Below, in pieces: positions 28,472 to 50,329 of a stretch of 64,000 nucleotides of DNA. The notes under the pieces were generated by a model, which was given only the letters and a program-made list of their open reading frames with translations, was not told the DNA's origin and did not search any database. The position numbers and the translations under genes were made by a program. The stretch's first letter is position 1, and each line of letters starts with the position of its first letter. The stretch is taken from contig CAXTFY010000001.1 in NCBI GenBank assembly GCA_964243265.1, forward strand, positions 15,556 to 79,555, read 5' to 3'. Source of the DNA: an uncultured Acetobacteraceae bacterium (lineage in GTDB: Bacteria; Pseudomonadota; Alphaproteobacteria; Acetobacterales; Acetobacteraceae).

Positions 28472-30280
28472 ATGACCGACAAGCCCTTTTCCGTCGCATT
28501 CGACCCCGCGGCCCCGGTAGGCGAGCGTTTTGACGCCGGCTCCGAGATGCAGGCGACCTATGCGCCCACCGCCTCCGAGCTGATCCCGCGCGGCGACCTG
28601 ATGCCCATTATCGACATGATCCGCGGGGACATGGCCGAGACGGCGCTCGTAAAGGCGTCCGGGTCGATCGCGGGCTACCCTGGCGAGCACGGCCCCAAGA
28701 AGATCGACGGCCGCGGCATGACCTCGGTGTACCTCGACAATCTGCAGATTTACCTGTCGGGCAATACCTATGAAAAGCCCGCCCCGCTGGGGTTTGAAGG
28801 CCTCCGGCAGATGGTGGACCAGACCCCCATCCTGTCGGCAATCGTGATGACCCGCATCCGGCAAGTGTCGCGGTTCTGCCAGCCGTCCGAGGATGGCGGC
28901 CCGGGCTACGAGATCCGCCACGTCGATCGCAAGCACGAGCTGACGCCGGAGGAGGAAGTGAGCACGCGCCTGCTGTCTCGCTTCGTGGCCAACTGCGGCT
29001 GGGAGTTCAACCCGCGGCGCCGCAAGGCCATGAAGCGCGAGTCGTTCACCCGGTTCATGTCCAAGCACCTGCGCGATTCCTTGACTATGGACGCGGCGCC
29101 GGTCGAGACCGAGATGAAGCGCGACCGCTCGCTGGGCATCGACGGGTTCTACGCTGTCGATGGGTCCACCATTCGCCTGTGCACCGATGAGGGATATGAC
29201 GGCGACGACTCCATTTACGCCCTGCAGATGATCCAAGGTCGCATTTGCACGGCCTATACCCAGGATCAGCTTATCTATGAGGTGCGCAATCCACGGTCGG
29301 ATGTTCGCCTAGCTGGATATGGGTTGGGCGAACCGGAGCTTTTGATCCGGGTAGTGACTGGCATCTTGAATGCCATGTCGTACAACATTGCCGGCTTCGA
29401 TAACAACGCCATTCCGAAGGGCCTGTTGCACCTCTCCGGCGACTATGACCAAGCCGACCTGGCAGCGTTCAAGCGGTATTGGAACGCACAAGTAAAAGGC
29501 ATCAACAACGCCTGGTCGTTGCCGGTGATGATCTCGAAGGACCAGGAGAGCAAGGCGAATTTCGAGAGCTTCGGCGTCGAGCATAATGAGATGCACTTCG
29601 CCAAGTGGATGACGTTCCTATGTAGCATTTGCTGCGCCATCTATGGAATGTCGCCCGACGAAATAAATTTCGAGAGTTTCGCCGCGCAGAAATCGAGCCT
29701 GTCCGGCTCGGACACCGAGGAGAAGCTGACCAACGCCAAGGATAGCGGGCTGCACCCGGACATGGCGCACCTCGAAGCCGAGATGTCGGACTTCATTATC
29801 AGCGAGTTCGATGACAAATTCTGCTTCCGATGGGTCGGCACCACGCCGGAGGACGCAGACCGGGTGTGGGAAGGTAAGAAGCTCACATACACCGTCGATG
29901 AGCTTAGGGCGGAGCAGGGCTTGCAGCCGCATCCGGATGCCAAGGTGGGCGCGCTGCCGCTCAACCCCACCCTGATCGGGCCGGCGATGCAACTTAACCA
30001 GCCGCCGAAGCCGGGCGGCGACTTCGGCGGGCAGGCGCAAGAGCCAGGGCAGGACTTCGGCAACGCCGACGACGGCGACGATCCGGCCGGCGATGACCAG
30101 GCCGGGGGCGAGGCGAACGGCACCGGCGACCCGTCCCAGGCGGGGCCTGACGGCGTGCCGACCGGTCCGGCCCCTGCTGGTCCACCGGCCGCAGCCGGGG
30201 CGCCTGGCGGCGACTACGGCGGTCCTGGCAAGGGGGATTTCGGCAAAGCCATGGGCCTGACCATCTACGCGGTTGGCTAG
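28472..30280 (+). CDS. portal protein
   Basis: 602 aa, in the position after the terminase. Core region 'AIPKGLLHLSGDYDQADLAAFKRYWN...' with an acidic Gly/Pro/Asp-rich C-tail typical of portals. Confidence 0.75.
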   Translation: MTDKPFSVAFDPAAPVGERFDAGSEMQATYAPTASELIPRGDLMPIIDMIRGDMAETALVKASGSIAGYPGEHGPKKIDGRGMTSVYLDNLQIYLSGNTYEKPAPLGFEGLRQMVDQTPILSAIVMTRIRQVSRFCQPSEDGGPGYEIRHVDRKHELTPEEEVSTRLLSRFVANCGWEFNPRRRKAMKRESFTRFMSKHLRDSLTMDAAPVETEMKRDRSLGIDGFYAVDGSTIRLCTDEGYDGDDSIYALQMIQGRICTAYTQDQLIYEVRNPRSDVRLAGYGLGEPELLIRVVTGILNAMSYNIAGFDNNAIPKGLLHLSGDYDQADLAAFKRYWNAQVKGINNAWSLPVMISKDQESKANFESFGVEHNEMHFAKWMTFLCSICCAIYGMSPDEINFESFAAQKSSLSGSDTEEKLTNAKDSGLHPDMAHLEAEMSDFIISEFDDKFCFRWVGTTPEDADRVWEGKKLTYTVDELRAEQGLQPHPDAKVGALPLNPTLIGPAMQLNQPPKPGGDFGGQAQEPGQDFGNADDGDDPAGDDQAGGEANGTGDPSQAGPDGVPTGPAPAGPPAAAGAPGGDYGGPGKGDFGKAMGLTIYAVG

Positions 30281-33200
30281 GGTGGGCAAGCCCGCAGCAC
30301 CGGTGCCGGGGATCGAGCGCGGCGACCATGTGTACGTCCAGCACCCCAAGCGCGGCGCGATGGCGGTGAAGGTGTTGGCGACCGGCAAGGACGGGTTCAC
30401 CGGGGAGGACGGGGCGAAGCGGCGGCACAAGCTCAACTTCGACTCGTACGTCGGCCACAAGACGCGGATGCTGCACACGTACAACCTGGTGGACCAGGGC
30501 GCCGACGGCGCGCTGCTGCAAGACGGCCGCGGGCAGCGGCGCTACCTGGCCGGCGTGCTGCCGGCAGCCGTCCAGGACGACGGCAAGGAAGCTGACCCGC
30601 ATCCGGACGCGCCGGCGCCGGGCCGCCAGGATGATCCGCTGAAAGGTGGCCTGTCGTTGTTGAAGGCGTCCGCCCTGCAGCTACAGGCGGGGACGGACAA
30701 GGCCGGGCACGCCATCCACCGGTGGCACGGCCGCCCGGTGTTCCCGCAGCCGCAGCGGATGATGGACCCCGCCGCGCCTGACTATGCGCCGGGCGGCCGA
30801 TACCTCTCCATGCCCACGCGGGAGGACATCACGGGCCGCACGGTGGGCCGGGCGCGGATCTCGGTCGGCGACGACGGCAAGCCCAGCTTCGGCGTGTCCG
30901 ATGACCAGGTCGAGCCGGCCGCGCCGGCGCACGGCAAGGTCGTCCGCACCAACCTGTTCAAGCGCGCGGCGGGCTGGAGCTGGACGCACCGCGACGACGG
31001 CGTTCCGGACGTGAGCACCATCGTCAGCGTCGAGCACGGCGGCCAGCACCACTACACCCTAGCAGCCGATTTCCACGACGGCGTGACCCTGGCGCGCTAC
31101 CCCAAGGCCCCGAGCGAGCCGCGGCTTCGGCCGACCACGCACGGGCACATCACGATGCCCGGGCATGAGGTCGGCCGCATCTCTGTCCGCGGCCGGGAGC
31201 ACCCGGTCCATTCGACCATCGCGGTCCACCGCGGCGGCGGCGCCTCGCTTGCAAAGTCATTTCACCTCGCCGGCCTGGTGCCGGTCCAGGTCGAGGAGCT
31301 ATCCGACATGCCCGGCCCTATGATCCTGTTCACGAAGGCCATGGGCACGCCCGTTGCCAATCGGCCGGGCTTGGCCTTGAAGCGCGTGACCGACAAGGGG
31401 GGGCACCAGACCCAGCGGTGGAGCAAGACGGGCGTTGACATGCCGGCCGGCAAGAAGCCGGCCGCCGGCGAACCGGACGCGCCACCTCCGGCCCCGATGA
31501 AGCACGGCGACGTCGTGAGCTTCCGCCATGGCGAGGTGCAGGGGCAGGGCAAGATCGTCGGCAGCGGGCAGGACGGCGTGACGGTGCGCGACGGGGAGCG
31601 TGAGCACCAGGTCCGGCACGAGCACCTTGAAGGCAAGGCGCCGGACGCGCCGGCGAAGGTGCTGCAGCGGCCGGACTACGCCCCGCGCGCGACGGGGGAG
31701 GACGATAAGAAGTACCTCAAGCGGACCGCCAGCTCGATCCCGGACCCGGAGCACCTGCCGGAGGAGCACGACCGGTATTTCAACCAGGTCGAGGGCGGCA
31801 AGACGGTCCCGATGGACCAGCTTGTGAGCACCAAGTCCGATGCGGAGAACGAACAGGGCGGCAACAACTCGCCGAAATTCATGGGCGCGGCGTACCATGG
31901 CGTTGTGGCCAAGCGTGACCCCATCACGGTCAAGCAGCGGCCGGACGGCAAATACGATGTCATGGACGGCAACGGCACGTACACCGGGGCCAAGAAGCAC
32001 GGTTGGAAGAACCTGCCAGTTCGCGTCGAGGGCGGCGGCGGGGATGATGCCGGCGGAGCTGGCGCGGCGCCGCCCAACCCTCCGCCACTGTTCCCGGCGG
32101 CCGAGGTTGCTGACCTGCCGGAGCTGGGGGAGCAGAAGTTCAACACGCAGGACGCGCTGTACAAGGCGAGTGCTGAGTCGCTGGAGCACCTGAAAACCTG
32201 GCTGAACCGCGGCAAGGGCGTCTGCTCGAAGATGGGTTTCGAGACGATGACGTGCTCGCCCGAGGATGCGGACCTCACCAAGCCCGGCGGGATGTTGTTC
32301 GTTGCGCCATTGAAGGGTGCCAAGCGCGCGAAGGAGAAGGTGGACTCCGCCTATGACGGCGACTGGTCGAAGCTGCGCGACGTGGTGCGCTGCTCCATCG
32401 CCGTGGACAGCATGGACGACATCACCGACGCCCTGACGCAGTTGAAGGCGTCCGGGATGCTGCTGGCGCAGCAGCCGAAGGACAGGTTCCACCGGCCGCT
32501 GCCGGTGGGCTACAGGGACGTGCAGCTCATCGTCCGCTTCCCGAACGGGTCGTTGGGCGAGGTGCAACTCCACCTCAAATCCATGCTGATCGCCAAGGAT
32601 GAGGGCCACAAGCACTACGAAACCATGCGGACGCTTGAAACCAGGCCGCCGGGCGAATGGAACACGGAGGAAACCACCTCGTATGACGGCGCGGTGGAAG
32701 CATCCAAGGCAATCTACGGCCAGGCGTGGGCGAAGTCGGCCGGCAAGCCCGCGGACAAGGGCACGCCGATGGCCAAGGCATTGAAGGTGTCGCCCGGCAT
32801 GGCGGCGGCGTGGGAGCACTATGACCTGGACGGCGCTAAGTACCGCCGACCGGGGCCGCGCGGTGCGATCACCGACGTTCTGAACGGCGATAAATGGGCG
32901 CCGTTCACCGGCGACGACGCGACCGAGCCGCACGTCTTCGGCGACCCCATTGATGACCCGCTGGCAGGCGGCGGCGGCGAGCCTGATGGCAGCGGGGGCG
33001 AGCCGGACACCGGCGGCGGGGGTGAGCCGATGGCCAAGGCGTTGAACCAAGCGGCTCACCGGGCCATGCCGATCCTGTTCTTGAAGGCGACGATCCCCGG
33101 TGGTGCACGCGGGGACCTGTTCGCGCAAAGCGTTCAGGTTGCCGGGCATTCCACCGCGGCCGGAACCTATGTGGCGCCCTACCAGGCCCAGCGCATGAAG

Positions 33201-34187
33201 GCGCCGGACGCGCCGCGGCCGATGCCGAAGGACGACGGCGCGTGGCACACCGCGATGCAGGCGAAAATGAAGGGGCTGGGCGACCACGCGCTGCACTACA
33301 CCGCCAACGACGCACGCCTGGCGGCGGAGGCGGCCGAGACTTTTAGCGGCGCCGGCGCCGGCCGGCATCGAGACGAGGCGAGCTACGCGCGGGCGGAAAT
33401 CGTCGCGCGCCGGCGGGGTGAAAGCACGGCTCCGCCGTCGTTCGCGGCGTTGGAGCAGGCGGCGGGCGGGCGTGCCATGGCGGCCCGCGCGTGGGCCAAG
33501 CTACGCCACAACCCCATGCCGTCCGCGCCGCAAGGGCTAGGGGCCTGGGGCCACGCCACGGGCCAGGTCTTCACGGATGCGGAGCACGACGCCAACGTGC
33601 GCCAGTGGGACCAGCAGGAAGGGGCTACCAGCCTGGCGGCGGCAGCCCAGCCCGCCATGGACATGCGCCCGGTGCCCGTCGCACCAGCGGCGCCGGAGCT
33701 GGTGCACGCCTCCTATGGCCTGCCGGAGGCCTCCACCTTCCACGAGGGCAAAGGGCCGCTAGGGCGGGGCCGCTGGCGGGCGGACGTGCCGGGGCATGGC
33801 TTCGCACCGTTCGGCGCGAACCGGGCGGAGGCGGCCCGTGCGGCGCTAACGTTCGTGTCCAATTCGACCCACAACAAGGACGCGGCCACGGCCCGGCATC
33901 ACCTGGACAAGGACATTGCCATCCGGGTGCGGGCGGGCCTGGATCTGGATGACGCCGACCTGCGGCATCTCGGCTTCCGGCCGGGCAAGGCGTCCGAGTT
34001 TTCCTACCTGTCGCCCGTCATGCAACGCCTGTTCGGCGTCCCGGCGCGACACGTCCGGGAGGCGATGGGCGATGCACTGCGCCGGACCCATTCCGAGATG
34101 GGGGCACCCAAGGATGTGGCCTCGCCGACGAAGGCGCTAAAGCGGGTCGCCGAGTACCTGGCCCGGGTCGAGAAGCTGCGCGGCTGA
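30273..34187 (+). CDS. 1304-aa polyvalent virion-type protein (ParB-like plus RelA/SpoT-like NTase plus three ILFLKA-type modules)
   Basis: ParB/Srx-like 'PITVKQRPDGKYDVMDGNGTYTGAKKHGWKNLPVRV' (about 31800-32030). RelA_SpoT-like 'LRDVVRCSIAV...GYRDVQLIVRFPNGSLGEVQLH...HKHYE' (about 32180-32640). Modules at aa 127, 350 and 932. Start is TTG 30273 or GTG 30282. Confidence 0.7.
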   Translation: MARVGKPAAPVPGIERGDHVYVQHPKRGAMAVKVLATGKDGFTGEDGAKRRHKLNFDSYVGHKTRMLHTYNLVDQGADGALLQDGRGQRRYLAGVLPAAVQDDGKEADPHPDAPAPGRQDDPLKGGLSLLKASALQLQAGTDKAGHAIHRWHGRPVFPQPQRMMDPAAPDYAPGGRYLSMPTREDITGRTVGRARISVGDDGKPSFGVSDDQVEPAAPAHGKVVRTNLFKRAAGWSWTHRDDGVPDVSTIVSVEHGGQHHYTLAADFHDGVTLARYPKAPSEPRLRPTTHGHITMPGHEVGRISVRGREHPVHSTIAVHRGGGASLAKSFHLAGLVPVQVEELSDMPGPMILFTKAMGTPVANRPGLALKRVTDKGGHQTQRWSKTGVDMPAGKKPAAGEPDAPPPAPMKHGDVVSFRHGEVQGQGKIVGSGQDGVTVRDGEREHQVRHEHLEGKAPDAPAKVLQRPDYAPRATGEDDKKYLKRTASSIPDPEHLPEEHDRYFNQVEGGKTVPMDQLVSTKSDAENEQGGNNSPKFMGAAYHGVVAKRDPITVKQRPDGKYDVMDGNGTYTGAKKHGWKNLPVRVEGGGGDDAGGAGAAPPNPPPLFPAAEVADLPELGEQKFNTQDALYKASAESLEHLKTWLNRGKGVCSKMGFETMTCSPEDADLTKPGGMLFVAPLKGAKRAKEKVDSAYDGDWSKLRDVVRCSIAVDSMDDITDALTQLKASGMLLAQQPKDRFHRPLPVGYRDVQLIVRFPNGSLGEVQLHLKSMLIAKDEGHKHYETMRTLETRPPGEWNTEETTSYDGAVEASKAIYGQAWAKSAGKPADKGTPMAKALKVSPGMAAAWEHYDLDGAKYRRPGPRGAITDVLNGDKWAPFTGDDATEPHVFGDPIDDPLAGGGGEPDGSGGEPDTGGGGEPMAKALNQAAHRAMPILFLKATIPGGARGDLFAQSVQVAGHSTAAGTYVAPYQAQRMKAPDAPRPMPKDDGAWHTAMQAKMKGLGDHALHYTANDARLAAEAAETFSGAGAGRHRDEASYARAEIVARRRGESTAPPSFAALEQAAGGRAMAARAWAKLRHNPMPSAPQGLGAWGHATGQVFTDAEHDANVRQWDQQEGATSLAAAAQPAMDMRPVPVAPAAPELVHASYGLPEASTFHEGKGPLGRGRWRADVPGHGFAPFGANRAEAARAALTFVSNSTHNKDAATARHHLDKDIAIRVRAGLDLDDADLRHLGFRPGKASEFSYLSPVMQRLFGVPARHVREAMGDALRRTHSEMGAPKDVASPTKALKRVAEYLARVEKLRG

Positions 34188-34191
34188 TGCC

Positions 34192-35199
34192 GTGATCCTG
34201 CTCAAGGCCCTGATCCCGGCGCACGATCGCCACCTCCCCGACGGCCGGCCGGTGCCTGTCCGGGCCTACACCCGGCGGTCGGCGCCGGCCGCGGCGCACG
34301 CGACCCCGCCCGTGGTGTCGTATTCGAGCGGCGCCAGCTCGCGCGCGCACCTCGAAGGCTACATCCACGCCGGGTCGCCCGTGGGGGTCAGCCTGACCGA
34401 GTTCGCCGACGGCTCGCCGACCTGGGACATGGTGGTAAACTACGCCCGGGCAGGCGGCGCCGTGTTCGTGGACAGCGGGGCCTTTCCCGCCTTCACGAAG
34501 GGGCAGGCGGTCGATTGGGACCGCCACGCCGACCTGGTCGCCAAGCTGTGCGACGACGCGGCCGGCGGCCGGCTGCATGTGATGATGCCCGACGTGATCG
34601 GCGACCAGGATGCCTCGATGCGCCTGCTGCAACAGCGGCGCGGCCAGGTCCTCGATGTCATCGCCGGCGACCATGATGCCCTGGTCGCCATCCAACGCGG
34701 CCAGCTATCGCCGCGGGACTGCTGGCGCAAGGCCGCCTCCATCCTCGGCACCCGCGACTTCACGGCCGCGGTGCCATCCAACAAGGCCGCCTTCACGCCG
34801 GCGGATGTCGCCGACCTGATGCGCGGCCCGGACCGGCCGGACCGGGTGCATTTCCTGGGGGTGGCGGGCAACCTGCGCAAGCTGGCGGCGCTGGCGGCGA
34901 TCGTGCACCAGGCGCACCCCGGTTGCGTGGTGACGTCGGACGCCAACCGCATCAGGGCAAAGGTGGGGGAAGGGCGGCCGATGACGGCCGCGCGGAATGC
35001 CATGATGACGCTGATGCGCGACATGCACGTTCTGCTCGATGACCCCGAACACAAGCGGATGTGGCTGGAGCAGCACGAGCGGGCCGCCGGGCCAGCCGCA
35101 ACCGGCATGGCCGTCATCCTAACGGAGGCGGCGGACCGCCGGCAGCCGGACCTGCTGACCGGCACGCCGCTGCGCAAGGCGCTGCGGCGGCCTGGCTAG
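34192..35199 (+). CDS. TGT/DpdA-like (tRNA-guanine-transglycosylase fold) protein with ILLKA-type N-terminus
   Basis: 'AVFVDSGAF' (compare TGT 'TDSGGFQ') and, about 130 aa later, 'RVHFLGVAGN' (compare TGT 'RYLMGVGKP'). GTG start. N-terminus 'VILLKALIPAHDRHLPDGRPVPVRAYTRR'. Confidence 0.45.
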   Translation: MILLKALIPAHDRHLPDGRPVPVRAYTRRSAPAAAHATPPVVSYSSGASSRAHLEGYIHAGSPVGVSLTEFADGSPTWDMVVNYARAGGAVFVDSGAFPAFTKGQAVDWDRHADLVAKLCDDAAGGRLHVMMPDVIGDQDASMRLLQQRRGQVLDVIAGDHDALVAIQRGQLSPRDCWRKAASILGTRDFTAAVPSNKAAFTPADVADLMRGPDRPDRVHFLGVAGNLRKLAALAAIVHQAHPGCVVTSDANRIRAKVGEGRPMTAARNAMMTLMRDMHVLLDDPEHKRMWLEQHERAAGPAATGMAVILTEAADRRQPDLLTGTPLRKALRRPG

Positions 35200-36288: not shown

Positions 36289-36302
36289 GTTCGGCGCTCC
36301 TG

Positions 36303-36327
36303 TTGGGGGCCGCAGCCCCCGGTTGCG
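36303..36327 (-). repeat. intercistronic hairpin repeat, copy A
   Basis: TTGGGGGCCGCAGCCCCCGGTTGCG, identical to 36655-36679. On the mRNA strand it forms GGGGGC-UGCG-GCCCCC just upstream of GGAG and ATG 36288. Confidence 0.7.
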
Positions 36328-37012: not shown

Positions 37013-38224
37013 ATGGCCGTGCTGCTGATCGACGTGGGCGACGTGCCGGCGTGCCACTGCGACGATGCGCTGGAAGGCATGTACAAGGCGCTGGCGGAAT
37101 CGCCGGATGGCGACGACCGGAGCATTTGGGCGCCGCACCCCAACCCCTTCCTGACGGAACACGTCGAGGACGTGACCCAGCGGTTCCAAGCCATCCTGGA
37201 GCGCATCCAGGACATCATCGCCCGGCTGCTGACCGGGGAGCCGATCGGCACCCTGGCGAAAGCCGACGTGCCCTGGATGCGGTGGGAGCCGGAGCAGTTC
37301 GAGACGGTCCGCCTGATGCTGGAAGCCAAGGCCCCGGCGCTTTACACGCTGGACGATTGGATGCTGGTCGCCGACTACCTGATCCAGCGATACCTGCCCG
37401 ACGCCGTGATCCAGAACGAAAGCGAGTACCTGACGGTGCGCGCCTCGATCCTGGGGAAGATCCAGGCTGGCGCCGGCATGACACCGCCCACGCCGGACAT
37501 GATGCAAGTTTGGTCCACGCTGACGCCCACGCTGTTCGCCACCGTTCCGGCCCGCGTATTGAGCACGTTGGAGCTGGAGATCATGCACGTTGCCAAGACA
37601 AGGGCGGCGCTGCACATCGGGTCGGTGACGGAGAGCATCCGCGCCCGGATGAAGGAAATCATCGTCCAGCACGTCCAGGCGCAGATCCTCGGGCAAAAGG
37701 AAGGGCAGGCGACCGCGCTCCGTTCGGCGCTATTCGACCAGTTCGGCAAGCTGAACCGCGACTTTCGCCGGATTGCCGTCACCGAGGCGGGGGAGGCTTG
37801 CAACACCGGCTACATCTCGGCCCTGCAGCCCGGCACCCGGGTCCGGCGGGTGGAGGCGTACCGCGGGGCCTGCCCGTTCTGCCAGTCGATCAACGGCCAG
37901 GTTTACACCGTCATCTCGCCCGACGATCGCCGCACATTGGACGTGAGCGGGCCAGATCATTACGTTTGGGTGGGCAAAAGCAATGTAGGCCGCTCCGCCT
38001 CGCCGAACCGTCGCGTGGGCAACGAGTTGGTCGCGCGCTTGCCGTTCGAGTGCTGGTGGTGCGCCGCCGGCGTCATCCACGCGCATTGCCGCGGCTGCTG
38101 GGTGACGCTGACGGAGGCTGCCGCGAACGTGGCGCCCGCGTTCGCCGCCTGGATGGGCGGGCTGCTCGCCCAGCACCGCGCGGCCCTGGCGGTCAACGAC
38201 CCGGTGCCGGACCTGCCGGACTAG
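37013..38224 (+). CDS. MuF-like / SPP1 gp7-like head morphogenesis protein
   Basis: 'FRRIAVTEAGEACNTGYISAL...GACPFCQSINGQVYTV' is the Phage_Mu_F signature. Confidence 0.75.
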   Translation: MAVLLIDVGDVPACHCDDALEGMYKALAESPDGDDRSIWAPHPNPFLTEHVEDVTQRFQAILERIQDIIARLLTGEPIGTLAKADVPWMRWEPEQFETVRLMLEAKAPALYTLDDWMLVADYLIQRYLPDAVIQNESEYLTVRASILGKIQAGAGMTPPTPDMMQVWSTLTPTLFATVPARVLSTLELEIMHVAKTRAALHIGSVTESIRARMKEIIVQHVQAQILGQKEGQATALRSALFDQFGKLNRDFRRIAVTEAGEACNTGYISALQPGTRVRRVEAYRGACPFCQSINGQVYTVISPDDRRTLDVSGPDHYVWVGKSNVGRSASPNRRVGNELVARLPFECWWCAAGVIHAHCRGCWVTLTEAAANVAPAFAAWMGGLLAQHRAALAVNDPVPDLPD

Positions 38225-41997: not shown

Positions 41998-43290
41998 ATG
42001 TCCCAGCATGGCACCCCGATCCTGTTCCTAAAGGCGATCATCCGCGGCGGCGCGGCCGGCGACCTGTTCGGCACGACCGTCGAGGTGGCCGGGCACACGC
42101 GGGACGGCAAGTATGTCGCGCCCTACAGCGCGACCCGGCAAAAGGCCGCTCCGAAGCCTCCAGCCCCTAAGCCGCCGGCGAAAGCCGAGTGGGAAGGCCG
42201 GCCCGTCGCATACGGCCACCTGGCGACCATCGAACACGAGGGGGTCAGCTACAAGGCAAGCCTGCACAAGCGACCCACGGGCCATCGCTGGCACCTCTCC
42301 ACCGCGGGGGAGAAAAGCGGACCCATCGGGCACAACATGTACCACTCGGGCACTCGCACGCTCGGCAGCGCCGTCGATTACCTCCGGGGCCTCATCAAGC
42401 ACGGGGAGCTGACCGTGCATCCCGACGGGCCGCCCGGGGCGACGCCGGCGGCGGTAGCAGCGCCGGCGAAGGCCAAGGCTGCGCCAGATCCGGCGGACCT
42501 GGCCGAATTGCGGCCCCAGCCGGCGCACCTGGTCGAGATGCGGGCCAAGTTGGCGACGCTGAAGAAGCAACGATACCCGGGCGCGTCAGGCGAGTTCCTG
42601 ACCAAGCTGTATGGCGCCCGCCTGGCGGCTGATCCCTCACGCTGGAAGGTCGGAATGGGCGTGCGCTACCCGGTCGCCGGTGGTGGCAAGGGTGCGCAGT
42701 GGAACCGCGGTTTTCGCATCGTCGATGTGTCGCCGGACGACAAGATGGCGCTGCTGCGGATGGTGCGCGACACCGGCCTCACCACGTCGGGCGGCAACGA
42801 CGACCGGATAGATGACGTCTGGGTTTACATGGGGGAGTTGGTGCGGGAGCGGTCGGGGGACTCCCCTGCACCCGCTCCCGCGTCGAACCCAGCGGTTCGC
42901 CGGACACCGTCGCACGTCGCTGATGAGGGGCTTGCAATCGCCCCGGAGATCCCGTCACAGGTCATCGACTACGTCAAGCGCGCCCTGGCCTCACTGGCGG
43001 ACGTGCGCGCGACCATGGACAGGCATCGCTCGGAATCCGACGTCCGCACCGGGCACCAGGGCGAGGCCGGGCTTTACTACCACCACGGGGACGAAGCCCA
43101 GCGCCACATCGCCGCCGCCCATGCCAGCCTGGCGAAGGTGCGGAACATGGCCGAGGCCAAGGGCATCGACTTCGATGCCGTGCTCGCCAGCCTCGGCGGT
43201 GTGACCGACACGACCCCCCTGCAGCCGCCGGCCGGCTGGGTTGACGCCGAGAACCATTACCAGCGGCGGGACCTGCCCAGCTCAAATTGA
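41998..43290 (+). CDS. ILFLKA-module protein with cargo of unknown function
   Basis: N-terminus 'PILFLKAIIRGGAAGDLFGTTVEVAGHTRDGKYVAPYSATRQK', then a Pro/Lys linker, then about 370 aa with no motif I recognise. Confidence 0.6.
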   Translation: MSQHGTPILFLKAIIRGGAAGDLFGTTVEVAGHTRDGKYVAPYSATRQKAAPKPPAPKPPAKAEWEGRPVAYGHLATIEHEGVSYKASLHKRPTGHRWHLSTAGEKSGPIGHNMYHSGTRTLGSAVDYLRGLIKHGELTVHPDGPPGATPAAVAAPAKAKAAPDPADLAELRPQPAHLVEMRAKLATLKKQRYPGASGEFLTKLYGARLAADPSRWKVGMGVRYPVAGGGKGAQWNRGFRIVDVSPDDKMALLRMVRDTGLTTSGGNDDRIDDVWVYMGELVRERSGDSPAPAPASNPAVRRTPSHVADEGLAIAPEIPSQVIDYVKRALASLADVRATMDRHRSESDVRTGHQGEAGLYYHHGDEAQRHIAAAHASLAKVRNMAEAKGIDFDAVLASLGGVTDTTPLQPPAGWVDAENHYQRRDLPSSN

Positions 43291-44216
43291 GCGTCCTGTT
43301 CTTCAAAGCGATCATCCGCGGCGGCGCCCATGCCGACTTGTTCGCAACCCCCGTCACCGTCGCCGGGCACACGACGGCCGCGGGCACCTACGTCGCCCCA
43401 TACACCTCGATCAGGCACAAGGCGCCGGCCCCCCTGGTCGCCGACCTGCCGGACCTGCATCCGGAGCCGGAGCCGGAGGCGGAACCCTGCATCTTCTGCG
43501 GCGAGCCGGAGCGCGTGTCCGTGCACGAGGCATGGGGCCATGACTTCATGCTGGACTGCTGCTGCGAGGCCCGGCGTGACTTCGCGGTGCAAGAGATGGC
43601 CGAAGATCCGGACTATGCGCGCCAGCTCCTGGAGGCAAGCGGCGTCGGCCCGCTGCGCCGGGTGGCATTCACCGATGAGGGGTTCGGCCAGGTGCTCCTG
43701 GACTTCGAGCCACGCATTGCGCCGATCAGCCGCGCCGACGCCAACGCCTTCATCGGCCGATGGCACCGGCACAACCCGCCGCTGCCGGCGGACCTGTTCC
43801 GCGCGGGCGTCTGGAATGGGTCAACCCTGCTCGGCGTCGTCATGGCCGGTGCCCCGACGGCCCGGGCCTATATGCCGCAGTTCGCCGCGCGGGAGCTGTG
43901 CGAGGTGCGCCGGCTGTGCATCCGCACCGACCTGCCGCGTGAGCTGACCTGGCGGGCAGCCTCGGCGCTGTACGGCTATGCGGCGGAGCAGGCGGCAGCC
44001 CGCGGGTATCGCAAGATCATCACCTACACCCTCGCCTCGGAAGCGGGGATGAGCCTGCGCTACGCGCGCTGGAAGCCGGAAGCCACAATCCGCGGCAAGA
44101 CCTGGAATACGCCGAGCCGGCCGCGCCAGGACCGCGGCCCGGTCGAGGCCAAGGTCCGTTGGTTCAAGAAGCTCTCGCCGGCGCCGGTGACGCTGATGCT
44201 GCGCACGGCGGCCTGA
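43287..44216 (+). CDS. ILFLKA-module protein with GNAT-like (XF1762-family-like) domain
   Basis: TTG start in a TTGA overlap. 'VLFFKAIIRGGAHADLF..VTVAGHTTAAGTYVAPY'. Cys cluster 'CIFCG...DCCCE'. 'RWHRHNPP...LLGVVMAGAPTAR...EVRRLC...GYRKIITYTL..EAGMSLRYARW...KVRW'. Confidence 0.55.
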   Translation: MSVLFFKAIIRGGAHADLFATPVTVAGHTTAAGTYVAPYTSIRHKAPAPLVADLPDLHPEPEPEAEPCIFCGEPERVSVHEAWGHDFMLDCCCEARRDFAVQEMAEDPDYARQLLEASGVGPLRRVAFTDEGFGQVLLDFEPRIAPISRADANAFIGRWHRHNPPLPADLFRAGVWNGSTLLGVVMAGAPTARAYMPQFAARELCEVRRLCIRTDLPRELTWRAASALYGYAAEQAAARGYRKIITYTLASEAGMSLRYARWKPEATIRGKTWNTPSRPRQDRGPVEAKVRWFKKLSPAPVTLMLRTAA

Positions 44217-44254: not shown

Positions 44255-47200
44255 ATGCTCCAGCACCCGCCCGTCGTCCTGTTTCTCAAGGCCACCATCC
44301 CGGGCGGTGCAGGCGACCTGTTCGCGCTGCCGGTCCAGGTTGCGGGCTACACGACACCTGACGGCACCTATGTTGCCCCGCACACGGCCATCCGGCACAA
44401 GCGGACCACCCTCCCGGCCGCCGCGCCAAAGGCCGCAGCGGTGGACCTGTTCGCCCATGCCGATGCGGCTGCTGCCCCCCCCAAGCCTGCGGGCAAAGCC
44501 AAGCCCAAGGCTGACACGGGGCCGGACCTTTTCAGCGCCATCTTGCACCCACCGGCGCCTGCCAAGCCTGCCAGCGAAGTTGCGGCCGCAACCGCAAAGC
44601 CGCCCGCGGTAGTAGAGTCCACACCCGCCTCCGGTCCGGCAGGGCTACGCACGGCAGCCGTTGGCGACGTGCTGGAAATCGACCTGCCTTACAAGAGCCG
44701 GTCGGTGCGCGCCCGGGTGCGGGTGGTCGAGCCGACATACCGGGATCACCGGGGCAGCGTCGTCCTGCTTGAGAAGCCGCCCCGCACGACGCTGGAGGTC
44801 GGCCGGACGCACCACGTCGATCAAGCCGTGGTCAATGCTGGGACGCTGCTTTCCGTCACCCCCGCCCTCACGGCTGCCGAGCTGGCGCAAGTTGCGTCGG
44901 CGGTCGCGCCAGCCCCCGCCCCGGCGCAAGCTGCGCCGGTCGGCGCACCTGCGGAGCTGGCAACCTTCGGGGTCGAGGCCGGGATCTCCGAGCCTGCCCG
45001 TCGCGCCCTGAATGCCGCCGCTGTCGCGGTGCTGACCAGCAAGCCCGATGCGGACATGACGGACGGCGACCGCGCGGTGCTGGCGCGCTACAGCGGCACC
45101 GGGGGATGCGGTGCCAGTCGCAACGAGTTCTACACCACGCCGGCGATCGCCCGGGCGATGTGGAGTCTGTTGGACCGCGCCGGGTTCCACGGCGGCGAGG
45201 TCTTGGAGCCGAGCTGCGGCACCGGCGTCTTCTTGCACACCGCGCCCCCTGGCGCGCATGTCGTCGGCGTCGAGATGGACCCGATCGGCGCCCGGATCTC
45301 CGGTATCCTGCACCGCCCGGCCGGGCATGAGGTCAATGCCGGAACGCTGGAAGCCTTCGCGCAAGGCGATGGGCGCCTGTTTGATGCGGTGATCGGCAAC
45401 CCGCCCTTCGGCATCCGCGGCGGCTCGGCCGGCGACGACAAAAAGAGCATTGCCAGCGCCGAGGACTATTTCCTCGATACCGCGCTGGACAAGCTCCGGA
45501 GTGGCGGCCTTCTAGCCATGATCGTGCCAACTGGCGTCATGGACGGCAAGGCCGGGCGCGGCTTCCGCGAGGCCCTGCTGTGCAAGGGGGAGTTCCTTGG
45601 TGGGTCGCGTTTGCCAAACACCGCATTCGAGGCGTCGCATACCGCTGTGACGTCCGACGTGCTGCTGTTCCGCCGGCGTCCGCAAGAGGTCGCCGGCGCG
45701 CTGTCAACCGTGGATCAGGACGTGCTGCAGCAGCTCGGCGTATGGGATGAGGAGTTCTTGTCCGGGTCCTATTTCGTCGCCGGCCGCGGCGCCGCCAACA
45801 TCCACGGCAACTTGGAACCCGGGTGGCGCGAAAAAGCCAACATGGGCCACGACATCACGGTGTCTGGTTCGATGGTGGGTGTGCCCGACGCCGTGCGTGA
45901 CATGCCGATCGAGGCGCCGGCGCCGTCTCCGGACATGGCAACCGTGCTCGCAGCCCTCGGCGACGACGATACGGCCAAGCGTCGGGCGGTCTCGGCCGCG
46001 CTGCGCCCTCCCTATCAAGTGGCCAAGCTCGGCGACGTGCAAACCGTGGACGGCATCCGGTACGTCCTGCAAGGCGAGCCGCCGCGGTGGCACCGCGCCG
46101 ACGAGGACCTGCCGCCGGCGGTCGCCGACGCGCTCGGCATCGCCGAGGTGCTGGAGGACCTGCACGAGGGCCGCGCGGCTGACCCGGCGATGGCCCGCGC
46201 GGGCCTGATCGAGGATCTTGACGCCTACGTGGGCAAGCACGGCACGCCAGGCCGCAGCAAAGCCCTGCGCGCCTGGCTCGCCAAGCCCTCTATGCCCAAC
46301 CTGGACGGGGTCGGCGGCAACGAGCACGGCGAGCGCGTCAACAGTGCCTACCGTCGCGTTGCGCGGCTGCTGGGCGCCGTCGGCGACGATGGCGGCTACT
46401 CCGACCTCGTGACCGGCGTGACCCGCCAGGCGGACGCGGCAAGCCTGGATACGATGGCCACCCGCCTGTCCCTCGAACGCGGCGGCTTCACCGCCGAACA
46501 GCTCGCCGCGGTCACGGGGGGGACAGCCGACCAGGTGCTAGACCACCTGTTCGCGTCCCCGGCCTACGCGGTCGAGCCGGACGGCCGCACTTGGAGCACG
46601 TTGGACTCCTACGTGTCCGGCGCCCTGTGGCCGAAGTTCGATGCCGCCACCGAAGCGGCGGCGACGCCCGGCGCCGACCCGGCGCTGGTGGCGAAGTGGG
46701 CCAGCCAAGCCGCGGTGCTGGACGCGGCGATCGCGCCGGCCTCGCTGGAGGACGTGGAGATCGCGCTCAACAGCGGCTTCATCCAGCCGGCGGTCATCAA
46801 TGCCTGGTTCCAAGCCCAGGAGGAGGCGCGTCGCGCCAAGCAGGGCAGGTATGGCCCGCAGTTCAACGTGGCCGAGCTGGAATACAAGGACGCGCTGTGG
46901 TCGGCCAAGGACGGCCGCGGCGTCAACGTCGGCGACACCCGGCTGATCCTCACCTTCCTCAACCGGACCGGCGTGCGCAAGGTGGACCGCGCAAAGCTGG
47001 TGCGGCTGAATGCGGAGTTTGCCGATTGGGTGCGCGGCTCGGACCTGCGGCAGTCCGTCGAGGACGGGTATAACCGCACCCACAAGGGTTTCATTGCGCC
47101 GGTGTTCTCCGACAAGCCCATTGACATACCCGGTCTAAACCCGCCATTCTCGGTTAATAATTACCACTGGTCGGGCCTTCGCTGGGCAATGCAGGCGGGC

Positions 47201-50200
47201 AGCGGCATTGTTGCCGATGATGTCGGGTTGGGCAAAACGCCTCGTGGCCTGATGCTTTCTAAACTTATGCAATCGACCGGTCAGGCGAAAAAGCCGGTTA
47301 TTGTCGTTCCGAAGTCGGTACTGGCGAATTGGGTCAAGGAAGCCGAGCAATGGTTCCCTGGCGCGAAAATCCTGGTCATCGGCGAAACCTACAAGACGGA
47401 CAAGGCCGGCAACGTTACCTCGAAGTCTGACGATGCCGAGACGCGGCAGGAGAAGTTCCACAACCTCCAACAAAACAGCCATGACTTCGTTTTCATCTCG
47501 CAACCCGCGTGGAACGAGCTGGACGTTAGCCCGGACCTCAAGGCGGGCTACCAGAGCGACGATTTCTGGACCCAACGTGGCGAAGCCATGGCCAACGCCA
47601 AGGCCTCCAAGATCGAGCGCGCCCGCGCGGCCGATGAACAGCGCGTTGCGGTCAAGGAGTTCGAGAGCCGGGAAGGCACGGTTTACTTTGACGAGTTGGG
47701 CATAGACGCGCTCATCATGGACGAGGGCCACGCCTATAAAAACCTGTATTCTGCCCGTGCTCGGTTCGGCGAAAAGCCGAAGTTCCTGGGCGGCTCCGGC
47801 GAAAGCAACCGGGCACAAGATACCTACTACAAGACCCGGGCATTGCGGTCCAAAAACGGCGGCAAGGGCGTTTTCATGCTGACGGCCACGCCCACGAAAA
47901 ACTCGCCGTTGGAAATTTACTCGATGCTGGCGCAGATCGCGCCGGAGGCCTTCGAGAAAATGGGCATCCGCAACTCGGAAGCCTTCCTAGACCGGTTCTG
48001 CGAGTTCTCGATGGACATGGTGCCGACCATTGATGGCGGCGTGGACGAGGAGCTAGTGACCAGCGGCTTCAAGAATTTGGACGAGCTGCGGGAGGTGATG
48101 AAGCGATACATCGACCGGCGGACCGCGGCTGACGTGGGCCTGGTGATCCCCAAGGGGCTGCCGGTCGATCACTACGTCGATATGTCCCCGGCGCAAGAGG
48201 AAGCCTACCAGGAGTTGCGGGCGCAGTACGCGGCCGTCGCCGACGGCACCGCCGACGCCACCGGCGAAAGCCATATCTTCTCGATCATGAATCGCATGGG
48301 CAAGGCGTCGCTGGACCTGTCCCTGCTTGACCCGTCCTACCATGGCGAGCGTGCGCCGAAGGTCGATGCCTGCGTTGATGCGGCGATCGAGCACGCCGGC
48401 GACGGCGGCCAGATCATCTTCTGCGACGCCAACGACATGCACGAGCGGATTGCCGCCTCCCTGGTCGCCCGCGGCGTGCCGCGCAACCGCATCGGCATCA
48501 TCAACGCGACGGCCGCCGAAGGGTCGGCCGCACGGCAGAAAATCTGCGACCAGTTCAACTCGGGCAAATTGGGCTACGTGATCGGCAACACGGCGACGAT
48601 GGGCGAGGGCGTGAACCTGCAAAAGGGCACCTCGGACATCCATCACCTCGATCTGCCATGGGAGCCGGCGTCCATGCACCAGCGCAACGGCCGCGGGGTC
48701 CGGCAGGGCAACAAGAAGGGCAGCGTGCGCCTGCATACCTACCTCGCCAAGGGCAGCTTCGACGGCTACCGCCTCGCCACGATGATGGCGAAAAAGGACT
48801 GGCAGGACTTGCTGTGGAACGGTGGCGACAAGGTCGAGAACCTGTCCCGCTCCGGCGCAAACTCCCGCTCGGAAGTGCTGATTATGATGTCCGCCAACCC
48901 GGACGAAGCCCGCAAGGCGTATGATGCGAACAAGTCAGCCGCGGTGGAGCGCCGGCGTGCCGAGGATCGCGGCCAGGCGATCGCGGCATTCGACCGCTTC
49001 GATAAGATGGGCCGCGCGCTGGCGAAGCTGCGCGCGGAGCAGGACCCCTTGAAGGTGCAGGCGGGCGCGATCGCGCGCCTGGAAAAGAAGCGGCAGGTGC
49101 TTCATGGCGCGCTGCGCGACCTGCCGGCCTTCACGCATAAGGATCTGCTGGACCATCCGCACCCGGCCGTCATCGAGCCGGTGACAAACCATGCGTGGAC
49201 GCGCGGGCGCGGCCTCGTGCTGCACGGCGGCAGCGAGGGGCCGGCCAACTGGAGCGAGGACGAGTCGCGCTGGGTGGTCACGGGCGTCGATGCCGACGCC
49301 GGCACGGTGTCGGTGCGGGGCTACGGCGGCAACTCGCACTCCGACCGGCCCACCCTGGACTTCGATCTAAAGGACATGAAGGCGGGCGTGACCCCATTCG
49401 ACTACAGCGAGAAGGCCGAAAAGGCGGAGGTCGCCGACGCCGACACGGCGTACCGCACCATGGTCGGACAGCGGACGGCCGCCAAGATGGCCAACCCCAA
49501 CGGGCTGGGGCTGGTCGAGATGCGCGACCTGCCGCCCGACGTGCTGGCCAACCAGGCGGACCTGGTGCGTAGCCACATGCGCCTGCAGATCGAGCGTTAC
49601 CGGGACGGGCACAGCCAAGTCTATGGCCTGACCAACCACGAAGGCCGGCCGGTGGCGGCGCAGAGTTTCGAGGTGCGCAAGCTGCTCGGCGACCACGACC
49701 TGATCCTGCCGACGCCGGACGGCCGCGCCAAGGCAGTCGAGGGCTATGTCGATGCCGCCATGCGGCGCGGCGTCGTCACGCCGACCCAAACCGGCACGCG
49801 GATGCGCAGCTACAACGGCGCCAGCATGAGCACGGCCATCAAGCCAACCTATGAAGGGTTCGAGCACAGCACCAGCACCAGCGGCAATCCCTGGGAACAC
49901 GTCATCAAGGACGTGTTCGGGGAAGACGCGACCGCCGCGCAAGCCGCCGTGCGGGAGGAGGTCAAGCGGCGCATCGACTCTGCGCCGACCTTCCGGGATG
50001 CCGTGATCGCTGCGACAAAAGGGGTGGAGGTGCCGGCCTATGGCTGGGGCACCACCAGCAAGGGCAACCCGTGGCCGGCCGACGTCGTGCGCAGCCTAGC
50101 GGCCCGGGCGGCGAAGGATAAGGTGCTGGATTGGGACATGCACAAGGCGGCCAAGCCGTCGCAAAGCAGCTACAAGCCGGACCTGCATCCGGAGCTGTTG

Positions 50201-50329
50201 AAGCACGGCGGGGTCAACTACGCTGCGGATATGTCGCAATACGGCAATAGCCGCTCGCACCGGGTCCGTGACTTCCTGGAAGCCATCTCACATCCGGCGG
50301 ACAAAGCCGCCCTGAAAGCGGCCCCCTGA
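44255..50329 (+). CDS. 2024-aa DarB-like polyvalent protein: ILFLKA module plus N6-adenine methyltransferase plus SNF2-type helicase
   Basis: Methylase motif I 'LEPSCGTGVFL' and motif IV 'GNPPFG' (about 45200-45412). SNF2 motifs 'DDVGLGKT' (about 47215), 'MDEGHAYKN' (about 47720), 'LTATPTKNSPLE', and helicase-C 'GEGVNLQ...HHLDLPWEPASMHQRNGRGVRQGN'. Confidence 0.85.
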   Translation: MLQHPPVVLFLKATIPGGAGDLFALPVQVAGYTTPDGTYVAPHTAIRHKRTTLPAAAPKAAAVDLFAHADAAAAPPKPAGKAKPKADTGPDLFSAILHPPAPAKPASEVAAATAKPPAVVESTPASGPAGLRTAAVGDVLEIDLPYKSRSVRARVRVVEPTYRDHRGSVVLLEKPPRTTLEVGRTHHVDQAVVNAGTLLSVTPALTAAELAQVASAVAPAPAPAQAAPVGAPAELATFGVEAGISEPARRALNAAAVAVLTSKPDADMTDGDRAVLARYSGTGGCGASRNEFYTTPAIARAMWSLLDRAGFHGGEVLEPSCGTGVFLHTAPPGAHVVGVEMDPIGARISGILHRPAGHEVNAGTLEAFAQGDGRLFDAVIGNPPFGIRGGSAGDDKKSIASAEDYFLDTALDKLRSGGLLAMIVPTGVMDGKAGRGFREALLCKGEFLGGSRLPNTAFEASHTAVTSDVLLFRRRPQEVAGALSTVDQDVLQQLGVWDEEFLSGSYFVAGRGAANIHGNLEPGWREKANMGHDITVSGSMVGVPDAVRDMPIEAPAPSPDMATVLAALGDDDTAKRRAVSAALRPPYQVAKLGDVQTVDGIRYVLQGEPPRWHRADEDLPPAVADALGIAEVLEDLHEGRAADPAMARAGLIEDLDAYVGKHGTPGRSKALRAWLAKPSMPNLDGVGGNEHGERVNSAYRRVARLLGAVGDDGGYSDLVTGVTRQADAASLDTMATRLSLERGGFTAEQLAAVTGGTADQVLDHLFASPAYAVEPDGRTWSTLDSYVSGALWPKFDAATEAAATPGADPALVAKWASQAAVLDAAIAPASLEDVEIALNSGFIQPAVINAWFQAQEEARRAKQGRYGPQFNVAELEYKDALWSAKDGRGVNVGDTRLILTFLNRTGVRKVDRAKLVRLNAEFADWVRGSDLRQSVEDGYNRTHKGFIAPVFSDKPIDIPGLNPPFSVNNYHWSGLRWAMQAGSGIVADDVGLGKTPRGLMLSKLMQSTGQAKKPVIVVPKSVLANWVKEAEQWFPGAKILVIGETYKTDKAGNVTSKSDDAETRQEKFHNLQQNSHDFVFISQPAWNELDVSPDLKAGYQSDDFWTQRGEAMANAKASKIERARAADEQRVAVKEFESREGTVYFDELGIDALIMDEGHAYKNLYSARARFGEKPKFLGGSGESNRAQDTYYKTRALRSKNGGKGVFMLTATPTKNSPLEIYSMLAQIAPEAFEKMGIRNSEAFLDRFCEFSMDMVPTIDGGVDEELVTSGFKNLDELREVMKRYIDRRTAADVGLVIPKGLPVDHYVDMSPAQEEAYQELRAQYAAVADGTADATGESHIFSIMNRMGKASLDLSLLDPSYHGERAPKVDACVDAAIEHAGDGGQIIFCDANDMHERIAASLVARGVPRNRIGIINATAAEGSAARQKICDQFNSGKLGYVIGNTATMGEGVNLQKGTSDIHHLDLPWEPASMHQRNGRGVRQGNKKGSVRLHTYLAKGSFDGYRLATMMAKKDWQDLLWNGGDKVENLSRSGANSRSEVLIMMSANPDEARKAYDANKSAAVERRRAEDRGQAIAAFDRFDKMGRALAKLRAEQDPLKVQAGAIARLEKKRQVLHGALRDLPAFTHKDLLDHPHPAVIEPVTNHAWTRGRGLVLHGGSEGPANWSEDESRWVVTGVDADAGTVSVRGYGGNSHSDRPTLDFDLKDMKAGVTPFDYSEKAEKAEVADADTAYRTMVGQRTAAKMANPNGLGLVEMRDLPPDVLANQADLVRSHMRLQIERYRDGHSQVYGLTNHEGRPVAAQSFEVRKLLGDHDLILPTPDGRAKAVEGYVDAAMRRGVVTPTQTGTRMRSYNGASMSTAIKPTYEGFEHSTSTSGNPWEHVIKDVFGEDATAAQAAVREEVKRRIDSAPTFRDAVIAATKGVEVPAYGWGTTSKGNPWPADVVRSLAARAAKDKVLDWDMHKAAKPSQSSYKPDLHPELLKHGGVNYAADMSQYGNSRSHRVRDFLEAISHPADKAALKAAP

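Follow-up and report, generated by a model that had tools for sequence, protein, structure and literature searches.

A probable DpdA-type guanine transglycosylase carrying a shared N-terminal module, encoded beside the portal gene of a phage from an uncultured Acetobacteraceae bacterium

DpdA has been proposed as the signature protein of viral 7-deazaguanine DNA modification, and five subfamilies are recognised (PMC10516641). Is a gene that lies between the portal and minor head protein genes of a phage such a DpdA, and if so, what would its product do there? We asked this of g34, a gene for a 335-amino acid (aa) DpdA-like protein (34192..35199, plus strand; GTG start, TAG stop) in a 64,000-nucleotide (nt) stretch of DNA from an uncultured Acetobacteraceae bacterium (contig CAXTFY010000001.1), referred to below as the window. 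The window is phage DNA, with a GpA-type terminase, a portal protein, an endolysin and many DNA-modification and anti-restriction genes. A first-pass annotation, made from the letters of the window, had assigned g34 to the tRNA-guanine transglycosylase (TGT)/DpdA superfamily and had described its N-terminus as a virion-type leader. Our computational analysis indicates that the superfamily assignment is almost certainly right. It also leads us to favour, modestly, a reading in which g34 encodes a DpdA-type DNA guanine transglycosylase that would use host preQ0 and would be addressed together with the phage's other anti-restriction enzymes, probably into the capsid.

The open reading frame (ORF) is genuine, as had been supposed. 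It is an intact 335-aa gene with a G+C content of 0.90 at the third codon position, compared with 0.51-0.53 at position 2, in a window of 68% G+C, and g34 is therefore clearly coding. The two motifs on which the earlier assignment had been built also lie where they were reported, FVDSGAF at aa 92-98 (34465..34485) and RVHFLGVAGN at aa 218-227 (34843..34872). A word-indexed protein search with g34 returned only a 100% match (P0001) and 10 homologs, and the closest genome matches were metagenome-assembled genomes of Acetobacteraceae (65%) and Rhodospirillales (49%).

Searched as a single sequence, g34 matched nothing in Pfam or NCBIfam at E<=10 and gave noise only against PDB sequences; its sole match was phrog_887, 'queuine tRNA-ribosyltransferase' (E 2e-4, aa 86-144). 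When 105 family members were scanned individually, 28 matched the same phrog (best E 2.3e-8) and 48 matched phrog_15826, whose function is unknown. Comparison of profiles gave a stronger signal. A profile of 158 family domains aligned by hhalign to an alignment of relatives of phage 9g DpdA (DpdA1) with a probability of 94.3% and E 9.8e-8. The extended alignment paired five motifs in order, with the g34 family first in each pair: FVDSGAF with FLDSGAF, PDVIGDQ with LDGIGDP, IQRG with FHAG, VHFLG with VHGFG, and TSDANR with SCDSSSW. In the other direction, tblastn of 9g DpdA against the window matched g34 and no other ORF (E 6e-4). The comparison of the family with E. coli Tgt, a single sequence and not a TGT alignment, was not significant (probability 2.9%). 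The profile match to DpdA1 bears out the earlier classification, and we hold with high confidence that the g34 protein is a member of the TGT/DpdA superfamily.

Conservation within the family was counted across 158 representatives. D94, G96, D134, P195, H220 and G223 are 100% conserved, F92, S95, A97, F98, P133, Q139, Q168, G170, L222 and D250 are 94-99% conserved, and S46, G47, G65 and A200 also fall within the 94-100% conserved set. Given this family-wide conservation, the motifs of g34 are not chance strings. They can be read against the structure of the bacterial DpdA of Salmonella Montevideo, in which Asp95 is the acid/base, Phe99 and Leu236 stack on the base, Asp130 and His181 read the base edge and Asp256 is the nucleophile (PMC10164549). 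The two proteins share a TIM (triosephosphate isomerase) barrel and the same active-site roles, at nearly equal numbering: Asp95/Phe99, Asp130, His181-Gly182, Leu236 and Asp256 of the Salmonella enzyme correspond to D94/F98, D134, Q168-G170, L222 and D250 of g34. Conservation is 96-100% at the positions of the family that match the three catalytic Asp, the two stacking residues (Phe and Leu) and the His of DpdA.

Taken motif by motif (all on the plus strand), FVDSGAF is predicted to supply the general acid/base Asp94 (100%) and the base-stacking Phe98 (96%). MPDVIGDQ (34585..34608), aligned to LDGIGD of 9g DpdA, would supply the base-recognition residue Asp134 (100%), next to P133 (99%). IQRGQ (34690..34704), aligned to FHAGE, holds Gln168-x-Gly170 (98% and 99%) at the position of the Salmonella His-Gly pair. 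RVHFLGVAGN combines the invariant His220 and Gly223 with the putative stacking residue Leu222, and TSDANR (34933..34950) contains the predicted nucleophile Asp250 (99%), which corresponds by position to Asp256. RVHFLGVAGN aligns to VHGFG of 9g DpdA, whose histidine we take, without having counted the position, for the 'conserved histidine at position 196' of PMC6884629. The first-pass annotation had equated FVDSGAF with the TGT catalytic-Asp motif and RVHFLGVAGN with the TGT YLMGVG motif. FVDSGAF does correspond to DSGxF, in the role of general acid/base, and VHFLG to the YLMGVG/VHGFG strand, but the nucleophilic Asp lies farther on, in TSDANR; both putative catalytic Asp residues, D94 and D250, are retained on alignment. 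We take Asp250 to be the counterpart of Asp280 of Z. mobilis TGT, and a Gln at the position of Q168 is also found in bacterial TGT.

AlphaFold2 (AF2) models of g34 are (beta/alpha)8 TIM barrels with eight alternating strands and helices over aa 42-257. Their mean predicted local distance difference test score (pLDDT) was 79 with 11 sequences (model 1) and 89.7, with a predicted TM-score of 0.82, with 105 sequences (model 2). In the latter, the conserved residues lie at or just beyond the C-terminal ends of successive beta-strands. The catalytic barrel domain can be placed at aa 38-272 (34303..35007, plus strand) from the profile positions common to all family matches (~35-270), the AF2 models and the hhalign alignment to DpdA1. 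Beyond it, a C-terminal helical extension (aa 263-317, ending RRQPDLL; 34978..35157, plus strand) comprises DSSP helices 263-281 and 285-317; this extension is specific to close, leader-bearing relatives (consensus RRQxDLFG), and most of the wider family lacks it. Foldseek placed Z. mobilis TGT on top of the PDB matches of model 1 (E 2e-5, TM 0.41). Against viral models, the first match of model 1 was a polyvalent family member (37% identity, TM 0.77), and phage 'queuine tRNA-ribosyltransferases' were prominent among the later matches.

A link to 7-deazaguanine chemistry came from the surroundings of other family members. We searched 95 loci (1.6 Mb of flanks), nearly all of which hold a family member, for 7-deazaguanine genes. 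In the viral contig L029 the order is PolA, QueD (PTPS, 6e-22), QueC (3e-58), FolE (2e-63), QueE (radical SAM), the family member and, farther on, an Eco57I-type methyltransferase, the cluster spanning 5803-12513. Against the family hidden Markov model (HMM) this member scores 190 bits; its identity to g34 is 27%, where the family median is 30%, and none of the 14 signature residues is lost. A second member, in L087, abuts convergent QueE and QueC genes, is 22% identical to g34 with the signature residues kept, and has a His at the position of Q168, as DpdA does. By single-sequence phmmer, neither locus contains another DpdA or a TGT. The exception among the 95 loci, L096, holds a true DpdA1 and not a family member. 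L029 offers a compact candidate for experimental work on the g34-type DpdA clade. The g34 family is thus tied to preQ0 chemistry, and most of its members would depend on the host pool. Such dependence is feasible: in E. coli, the DpdA of phage 9g on its own puts preQ0 of host origin into DNA, and phages with dpdA only are known (PMC6884629).

The size of this family was a point that the first-pass annotation had missed. An exhaustive HMMER search with a profile of g34 relatives recovered 1128 cluster representatives at E<=1e-3, of which 581 reached E<=1e-30 (clusters at 50% identity). The g34 protein belongs to a large domain family that lacks annotation and is frequent in polyvalent proteins and on plasmids. 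Many copies are embedded in very large proteins: 45 of 160 representatives are at least 550 aa long (up to 7054 aa), 27 are extended N-terminally by more than 80 aa, and 40 of the 79 copies in IMG/VR viral contigs sit in ORFs of more than 1000 aa. Domains fused to the DpdA-like barrel include InPase, ddrB-ParB, ART-PolyVal, C5 and N6 DNA methylases, PAPS-reductase-like, Mom and AAA_34; the DpdA-like domain itself is not covered by LPD or any other Pfam family. The fusions to N6/C5 DNA methylases, Mom, ddrB-ParB and PAPS-reductase-like domains support DNA as the substrate, and we consider it probable that the g34 protein inserts a 7-deazaguanine into DNA.

Two other combinations recur or stand out within the family. 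An N-terminal domain like that of P0011, matching ScoMcrA_N (PF26345, which heads a type IV restriction enzyme), is found in 26 proteins, namely P0011 (L005, 10001-11242) and 25 other representatives that join it to a DpdA-like barrel. In L005 its neighbours are a C5 methylase, Mom, an integrase and a gene with weak PAPS-reductase-like similarity. Models of nucleoside 2-deoxyribosyltransferase are matched in addition by one family member (Pfam E 3e-9; phrog_355), which may fuse two different base-exchange folds.

Family genes are also carried, as 'hypothetical protein', by 52 plasmids, mostly of Pseudomonas, with Shewanella, Vibrio and Cupriavidus plasmids represented too. In both plasmids that we inspected, DUF4942 genes are close to the family gene, and one of the two also has KleE and antirestriction genes close by; we take these regions to be leading-region-like, which would fit action on entry. 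In viruses, the family domain resembles the polyvalent, P1 DarB-type cargo of Iyer et al. 2017 in occurring inside giant phage proteins with ART-PolyVal, InPase, ddrB-ParB, Mom and methyltransferase domains. Phage polyvalent proteins are thought to be capsid cargo (PMC5512222). The g34 gene adjoins one such protein, g33, beside the portal gene, but is itself a separate gene here and not part of a polyprotein. Within the literature open to our searches, no paper described a TGT/DpdA domain in polyvalent proteins, and the main text of PMC5512222 contains none of the terms TGT, queuine, archaeosine, glycosylase and barrel, and uses 'transglycosylase' only for peptidoglycan enzymes.

This company could also be read as that of an offensive effector, a delivered barrel acting on host tRNA or DNA that exchanges or excises guanine or 7-deazaguanine, erases or mimics a host Dpd self-mark, or makes abasic sites. 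The TGT reaction is a reversible base exchange, the family co-occurs with host-targeting effector domains (ART-PolyVal and, in g33, a weak RelA/SpoT-like region), and most family loci are without genes for a 7-deazaguanine base, all of which would suit such an activity. Against this, g34 has neither the Zn subdomain nor the tRNA-binding C-terminal domain of TGTs, most enzyme domains fused to the family are those of DNA modification and not toxins, and two members sit with preQ0 synthesis genes that a pure glycosylase would not need. We regard an effector role as improbable.

If g34 encodes a DNA-modifying transglycosylase, its N-terminus suggests that it is deployed in company. The first 30 aa of g34 (34192..34281, plus strand) form the short version of a module that is conserved in close homologs and consists of ILLKAL and a beta-hairpin ...GRPVPVRAYTRR; in the model built from the deep multiple sequence alignment the hairpin strands are aa 11-14 and 20-23 and the block has a pLDDT of 87. 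The module follows the pattern hydrophobic-LFLKA, an optional 15-aa insert (IxGGAxGDLFAxxV), then V-x-G-[HY]-x-[RK]-x(2-4)-G-x-x-V-x-[AP]-[HY]-x(1-3)-R. The long version minus its 15-aa insert equals the short version, and hhalign aligned the two (96%, E 3.5e-9), so that the shared N-terminal module described earlier is real: the first ~30 aa of g34 align with the long module in four other proteins of the window. These are g33, with the module at aa 927-985 (33051..33227; hmmsearch E 1e-34); g43 (41998..43290), 430 aa, which joins it N-terminally to a domain of unknown function with no Pfam match; g44 (43287..44216), 309 aa, which joins it to a Mom-like DNA-modification domain (Pfam Mom, E 2.6e-6); and g45 (44255..50329), 2024 aa, which joins it to N6-methyltransferase/Eco57I and SNF2 helicase domains and is DarB-like by domain content (all on the plus strand). 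Two proteins of the window match phrog_10089, 'DarB-like antirestriction', and the modification and anti-restriction set of the window comprises MT-A70, Mom, N6-methyltransferase/Eco57I, SNF2, DarB-like matches and InPase. The module was not found under any Pfam or PHROG name.

The hairpin was considered as a TGT N-terminal beta-lid and rejected as such, because the same module heads unrelated Mom-like and methyltransferase-helicase proteins. The conserved RRQxDLF(G) at the C-terminus of close g34 relatives resembles GDLF(A) of the long insert. Within g33, the module copies at 31320-31340 (aa ~350) and 33060-33075 (aa ~932) are each preceded by Met (…GPM-ILFTKA and …RAM-PILFLKA), and these internal modules look as if once-separate leader-tagged genes had fused. 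Two relatives, P0012 and P0015, have the DpdA-like domain as a fused part of a g33-type polyvalent protein.

The module is widespread in this phage group, where a segment of 30-55 aa heads or punctuates many proteins (loci L001-L007, L012, L013, L018, L024, L026 and L076); related phages carry it on up to seven or more proteins, with at least seven such ORFs in L013. We infer that it is a common addressing element that would send anti-restriction enzymes to one place. Packaging into the capsid is its most likely purpose, to judge from gene position and from the other proteins that bear it; the label 'virion-type' in the first-pass annotation went further than these two grounds support. The portal protein gene (28472..30280, plus strand; Pfam Phage_portal, and phmmer E 1e-169 to the portal of Yersinia phage fHe-Yen8-01) forms the upstream edge of the block and is followed by g33 (30273..34187, plus strand), g34, a block of small minus-strand genes of ~1.7 kb and the 403-aa g39. 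The order terminase, portal, polyvalent protein, DpdA-like protein and ~400-aa protein is conserved in related metagenomic contigs and in a prophage; in L006 and L007 the polyvalent and DpdA-like pair is followed by other genes. The module common to the anti-restriction proteins of the window, the position between the portal gene and g39, whose homolog is annotated as particle-associated, the conserved gene order and the precedent of polyvalent cargo (PMC5512222) all argue for delivery of the g34 protein in the virion, which we put forward tentatively, as slightly less likely than not.

The same observations bear on an alternative in which the chemistry is unchanged and is confined to the producer cell: progeny DNA would be modified late, and the module would assemble an enzyme complex or dock it at the portal or terminase during packaging. 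Every DpdA modification characterised so far is set after replication and ahead of packaging (PMC10516641), the Mom-like and methyltransferase proteins bear the same module, and g34 lies within a plus-strand block that runs from the terminase and portal onward. Two observations speak against confinement to the producer cell: the domain occurs together with ART and ddrB-ParB in giant polyvalent proteins, which are regarded as injected cargo, and plasmids carry it near antirestriction, KleE and DUF4942 genes in what we took to be leading-region-like surroundings. On balance we think this alternative unlikely.

For a DpdA-type enzyme co-addressed with the other anti-restriction proteins, the following mechanism can be proposed by analogy with TGT and DpdA. 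Asp250 would attack C1' of the target deoxyguanosine in double-stranded DNA and Asp94 would protonate the leaving guanine. A free 7-deazaguanine would then take the place of guanine, most likely preQ0 from the host queuosine pathway, since the window encodes no synthesis genes, and the modified sites would blunt restriction. The ~30-aa module (LFLKA and beta-hairpin) would serve as a separate address, sending the g34 protein and the Mom-like, methyltransferase-SNF2 and other module-bearing proteins to one place, most likely the capsid interior, for co-injection with the DNA. A bolder version, which we consider rather unlikely, is that of a capsid-carried base exchanger that travels with the Mom-like and DarB-like enzymes under a single N-terminal LFLKA/beta-hairpin address and acts at or just after DNA entry, where it would either write 7-deazaguanine from the preQ0 of the new host or rewrite or erase guanine marks of host DNA or tRNA.

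Several results weigh against the reading of g34 as a preQ0-using, virion-delivered DpdA. One concerns timing, as an enzyme that exchanged bases only once injected might not work fast enough to protect incoming DNA. Another concerns the supply of the base: no FolE, QueD, QueE or QueC was found in the window, 64 kb of an 88-kb contig, by a Pfam scan, by tblastn and phmmer with the 9g proteins or by phmmer with the E. coli proteins, and besides L096, only L029 and L087 among the 95 loci have 7-deazaguanine genes nearby. The absence from the window agrees with what had been noted before, but it does not alone point to an unusual role, such as those suggested before for incoming DNA, host nucleic acid or another base, given the dpdA-only phages and the use of host-made preQ0 by the 9g enzyme.

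The remaining points on that side concern sequence, fold and pocket. No HMMER match was obtained to Pfam TGT (PF01702), to DUF6610, to NCBIfam or to PDB sequences including Salmonella DpdA; none of the 105 family members matches Pfam TGT, and profile searches against PDB sequences with 11 or 105 family sequences gave noise only, so that no solved relative is detectable by sequence. With the better model, moreover, Foldseek against PDB returned class II aldolases, dihydrodipicolinate synthase (DHDPS) and sugar isomerases (E 1e-5 to 1e-3), with TGT absent from the top 50. These results would be expected of a generic TIM barrel that performs no base exchange, be it a sugar- or aldolase-type enzyme or structural cargo, whose TGT-like motifs had arisen by convergence. 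The profile-profile and HMM links, however, are specific to DpdA, five motifs match in order and spacing, two members are clustered with preQ0 genes, and the viral structural neighbours are DpdAs; we consider a generic barrel highly improbable. All PDB matches of both models are TIM barrels, and such low-TM matches are not family assignments, because the PDB ranking flipped between the models at pLDDT 79 and 89.7. As the better model lost the TGT match, the TGT/DpdA assignment rests on profiles, residues and context and not on the PDB fold ranking.

The pocket of g34 departs from the known enzymes at one conserved site. The Gly-Gly base-binding loop (G229/G230 in TGT; G206/G207 in Salmonella DpdA, conserved active-site residues of DpdA and TGT according to PMC10164549) is replaced by an invariant Pro-x-x-K loop. 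In g34 this is VPSNKAAF (34771..34794, plus strand) with Pro195 (100%); the family consensus is P-x-K-K-x-A, and hhalign aligned no GG to it. There is also no Zn site: g34 has three Cys (120, 177 and 245), none of them conserved, and the family has no conserved Cys column. With the GG loop replaced and no Zn site, the pocket and the substrate may differ from those of TGT/DpdA. The g34 protein could accordingly be imagined as a DNA transglycosylase that installs a different base, such as 7-carboxy-7-deazaguanine (CDG), 7-amido-7-deazaguanine (ADG), preQ1 or a base that is not a deazapurine. The loop that is replaced is the one that reads O6 and the 7-substituent in TGT/DpdA, the DpdA subfamilies differ in substrate (PMC10516641), and one family member is fused to a nucleoside 2-deoxyribosyltransferase domain. 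The guanine-edge readers Asp134 and Gln168 are conserved, however, and the L029 member, with the same Pro loop, stands behind a complete preQ0-making FolE-QueD-QueE-QueC set. A different base is, in our view, a doubtful proposition, and slightly more so than the effector role discussed above.

The same features set the g34 family apart as a separate clade that belongs to no named DpdA group, given the missing Zn site, the Pro loop in place of GG, the lack of a match to Pfam TGT or DUF6610 or to any GenBank phage, and a DpdA1 HMM that does not detect it. The GenBank result comes from tblastn with the P0001, P0019, L029 and L087 proteins, which matched none of 50,697 phage records. DpdA1 is the closest relative tested, DpdA2 and DpdA3 having been left without a direct profile comparison. 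Phage 9g DpdA (annotated 'queuosine tRNA-ribosyltransferase', AHN84519) and g34 are both phage-encoded, have in common the motif series F-[VL]-DSGAF, [PL]-D-x-IGD, [QH]-x-G, VH-x-[FL]-G and [ST]-x-D, and by inspection both lack a CxCxxC Zn motif. They differ in the Pro loop of g34 and in the absence of similarity at the level of BLAST between DpdA1 and the g34 family in a large database. They differ also in setting: 9g DpdA lies within a FolE-QueD-GatQueC-QueE cluster beside replication genes, whereas g34 is without such a cluster, lies between portal and minor head protein genes and carries the putative addressing module. Salmonella DpdA, unlike g34, is the modification arm of a chromosomal restriction-modification system; it has a structural Zn site and DpdA-specific insertions and needs the ParB-like ATPase DpdB (PMC10164549). 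Bacterial TGT (Z. mobilis or E. coli Tgt, PF01702) shares the DSGxF motif and was the top PDB fold match of model 1 only, but its substrate is tRNA, and it possesses the GG loop, a Zn subdomain and a beta-lid at the N-terminus. Membership in DpdA4/DUF6610 (PF20314) was rejected, as none of the 105 members matches at E<=0.01. The L029 member gives a sub-threshold match (E 7.5e-5; 22.9 bits, with a cut-off of 27), and DpdA4 is described as specific to archaeal viruses (PMC10516641).

The immediate neighbours of g34 complete the description of the locus. The upstream gene g33 encodes a 1304-aa polyvalent-type protein with internal modules and, at aa 685-781, a region that weakly resembles RelA/SpoT nucleotide pyrophosphokinases (E 9.5e-4, which does not reach the Pfam cut-off); relatives have the same gene order. 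The GTG start of g34 lies 4 nt past the TGA stop of g33, a gap without an obvious ribosome-binding site, and the frame of g34 is open already from 34141, overlapping the end of g33 in a different frame (34141-34191). The arrangement is compatible with translational coupling and, conceivably, with a frameshift fusion.

Downstream, four small minus-strand genes of 73, 160, 149 and 78 aa (35196-36922) break the otherwise plus-strand head block between g34 and g39. The block looks like an inserted moron, because the ~400-aa gene follows directly in L001-L004. The g39 gene (37013..38224, plus strand) encodes a minor head protein of 403 aa, identified by tblastn to ~90-kb phages; in these related phages its homolog directly follows the portal gene, and in Yersinia phage fHe-Yen8-01 it is annotated 'particle associated protein'. 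A stand-alone gene for InPase, the polyvalent-protein inorganic pyrophosphatase, lies at 38251-38790 (E 1e-42). Of 42 large relatives, 3 have InPase fused to their DpdA-like domain, and in L001-L003 and L006 InPase is encoded close by. Beyond the portal and minor head genes, comparison with fHe-Yen8-01 revealed no recognisable gene for a major capsid protein, a protease or tail proteins, and the 38-55 kb part of the window is filled by large cargo-type genes. Pattern scans of IMG/VR with two genes from the window ends found no relatives, and the last 60 bases had no exact match among the JGI metagenome contigs.

The chemistry proposed for g34 is probably a familiar one; what is new is the clade, its scale and its deployment. 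The clade is invisible to Pfam and NCBIfam, and its plasmid copies are labelled 'hypothetical protein'. Its members are deployed unlike the known DpdAs: some are built into giant polyvalent proteins, some stand beside the portal gene with a leader tag, as g34 does, and some are plasmid genes near antirestriction-type genes. If they are active, 7-deazaguanine or a related DNA modification would be much commoner among mobile elements than surveys show, and mostly dependent on host queuosine synthesis. The shared module can be tested directly as a candidate addressing signal, one that would bring DNA-modifying enzymes together, possibly in the virion. And if the protein does act as cargo on entry, the presence of its domain in hundreds of polyvalent and plasmid genes would make transglycosylation a general 'first-minutes' counter-defence.

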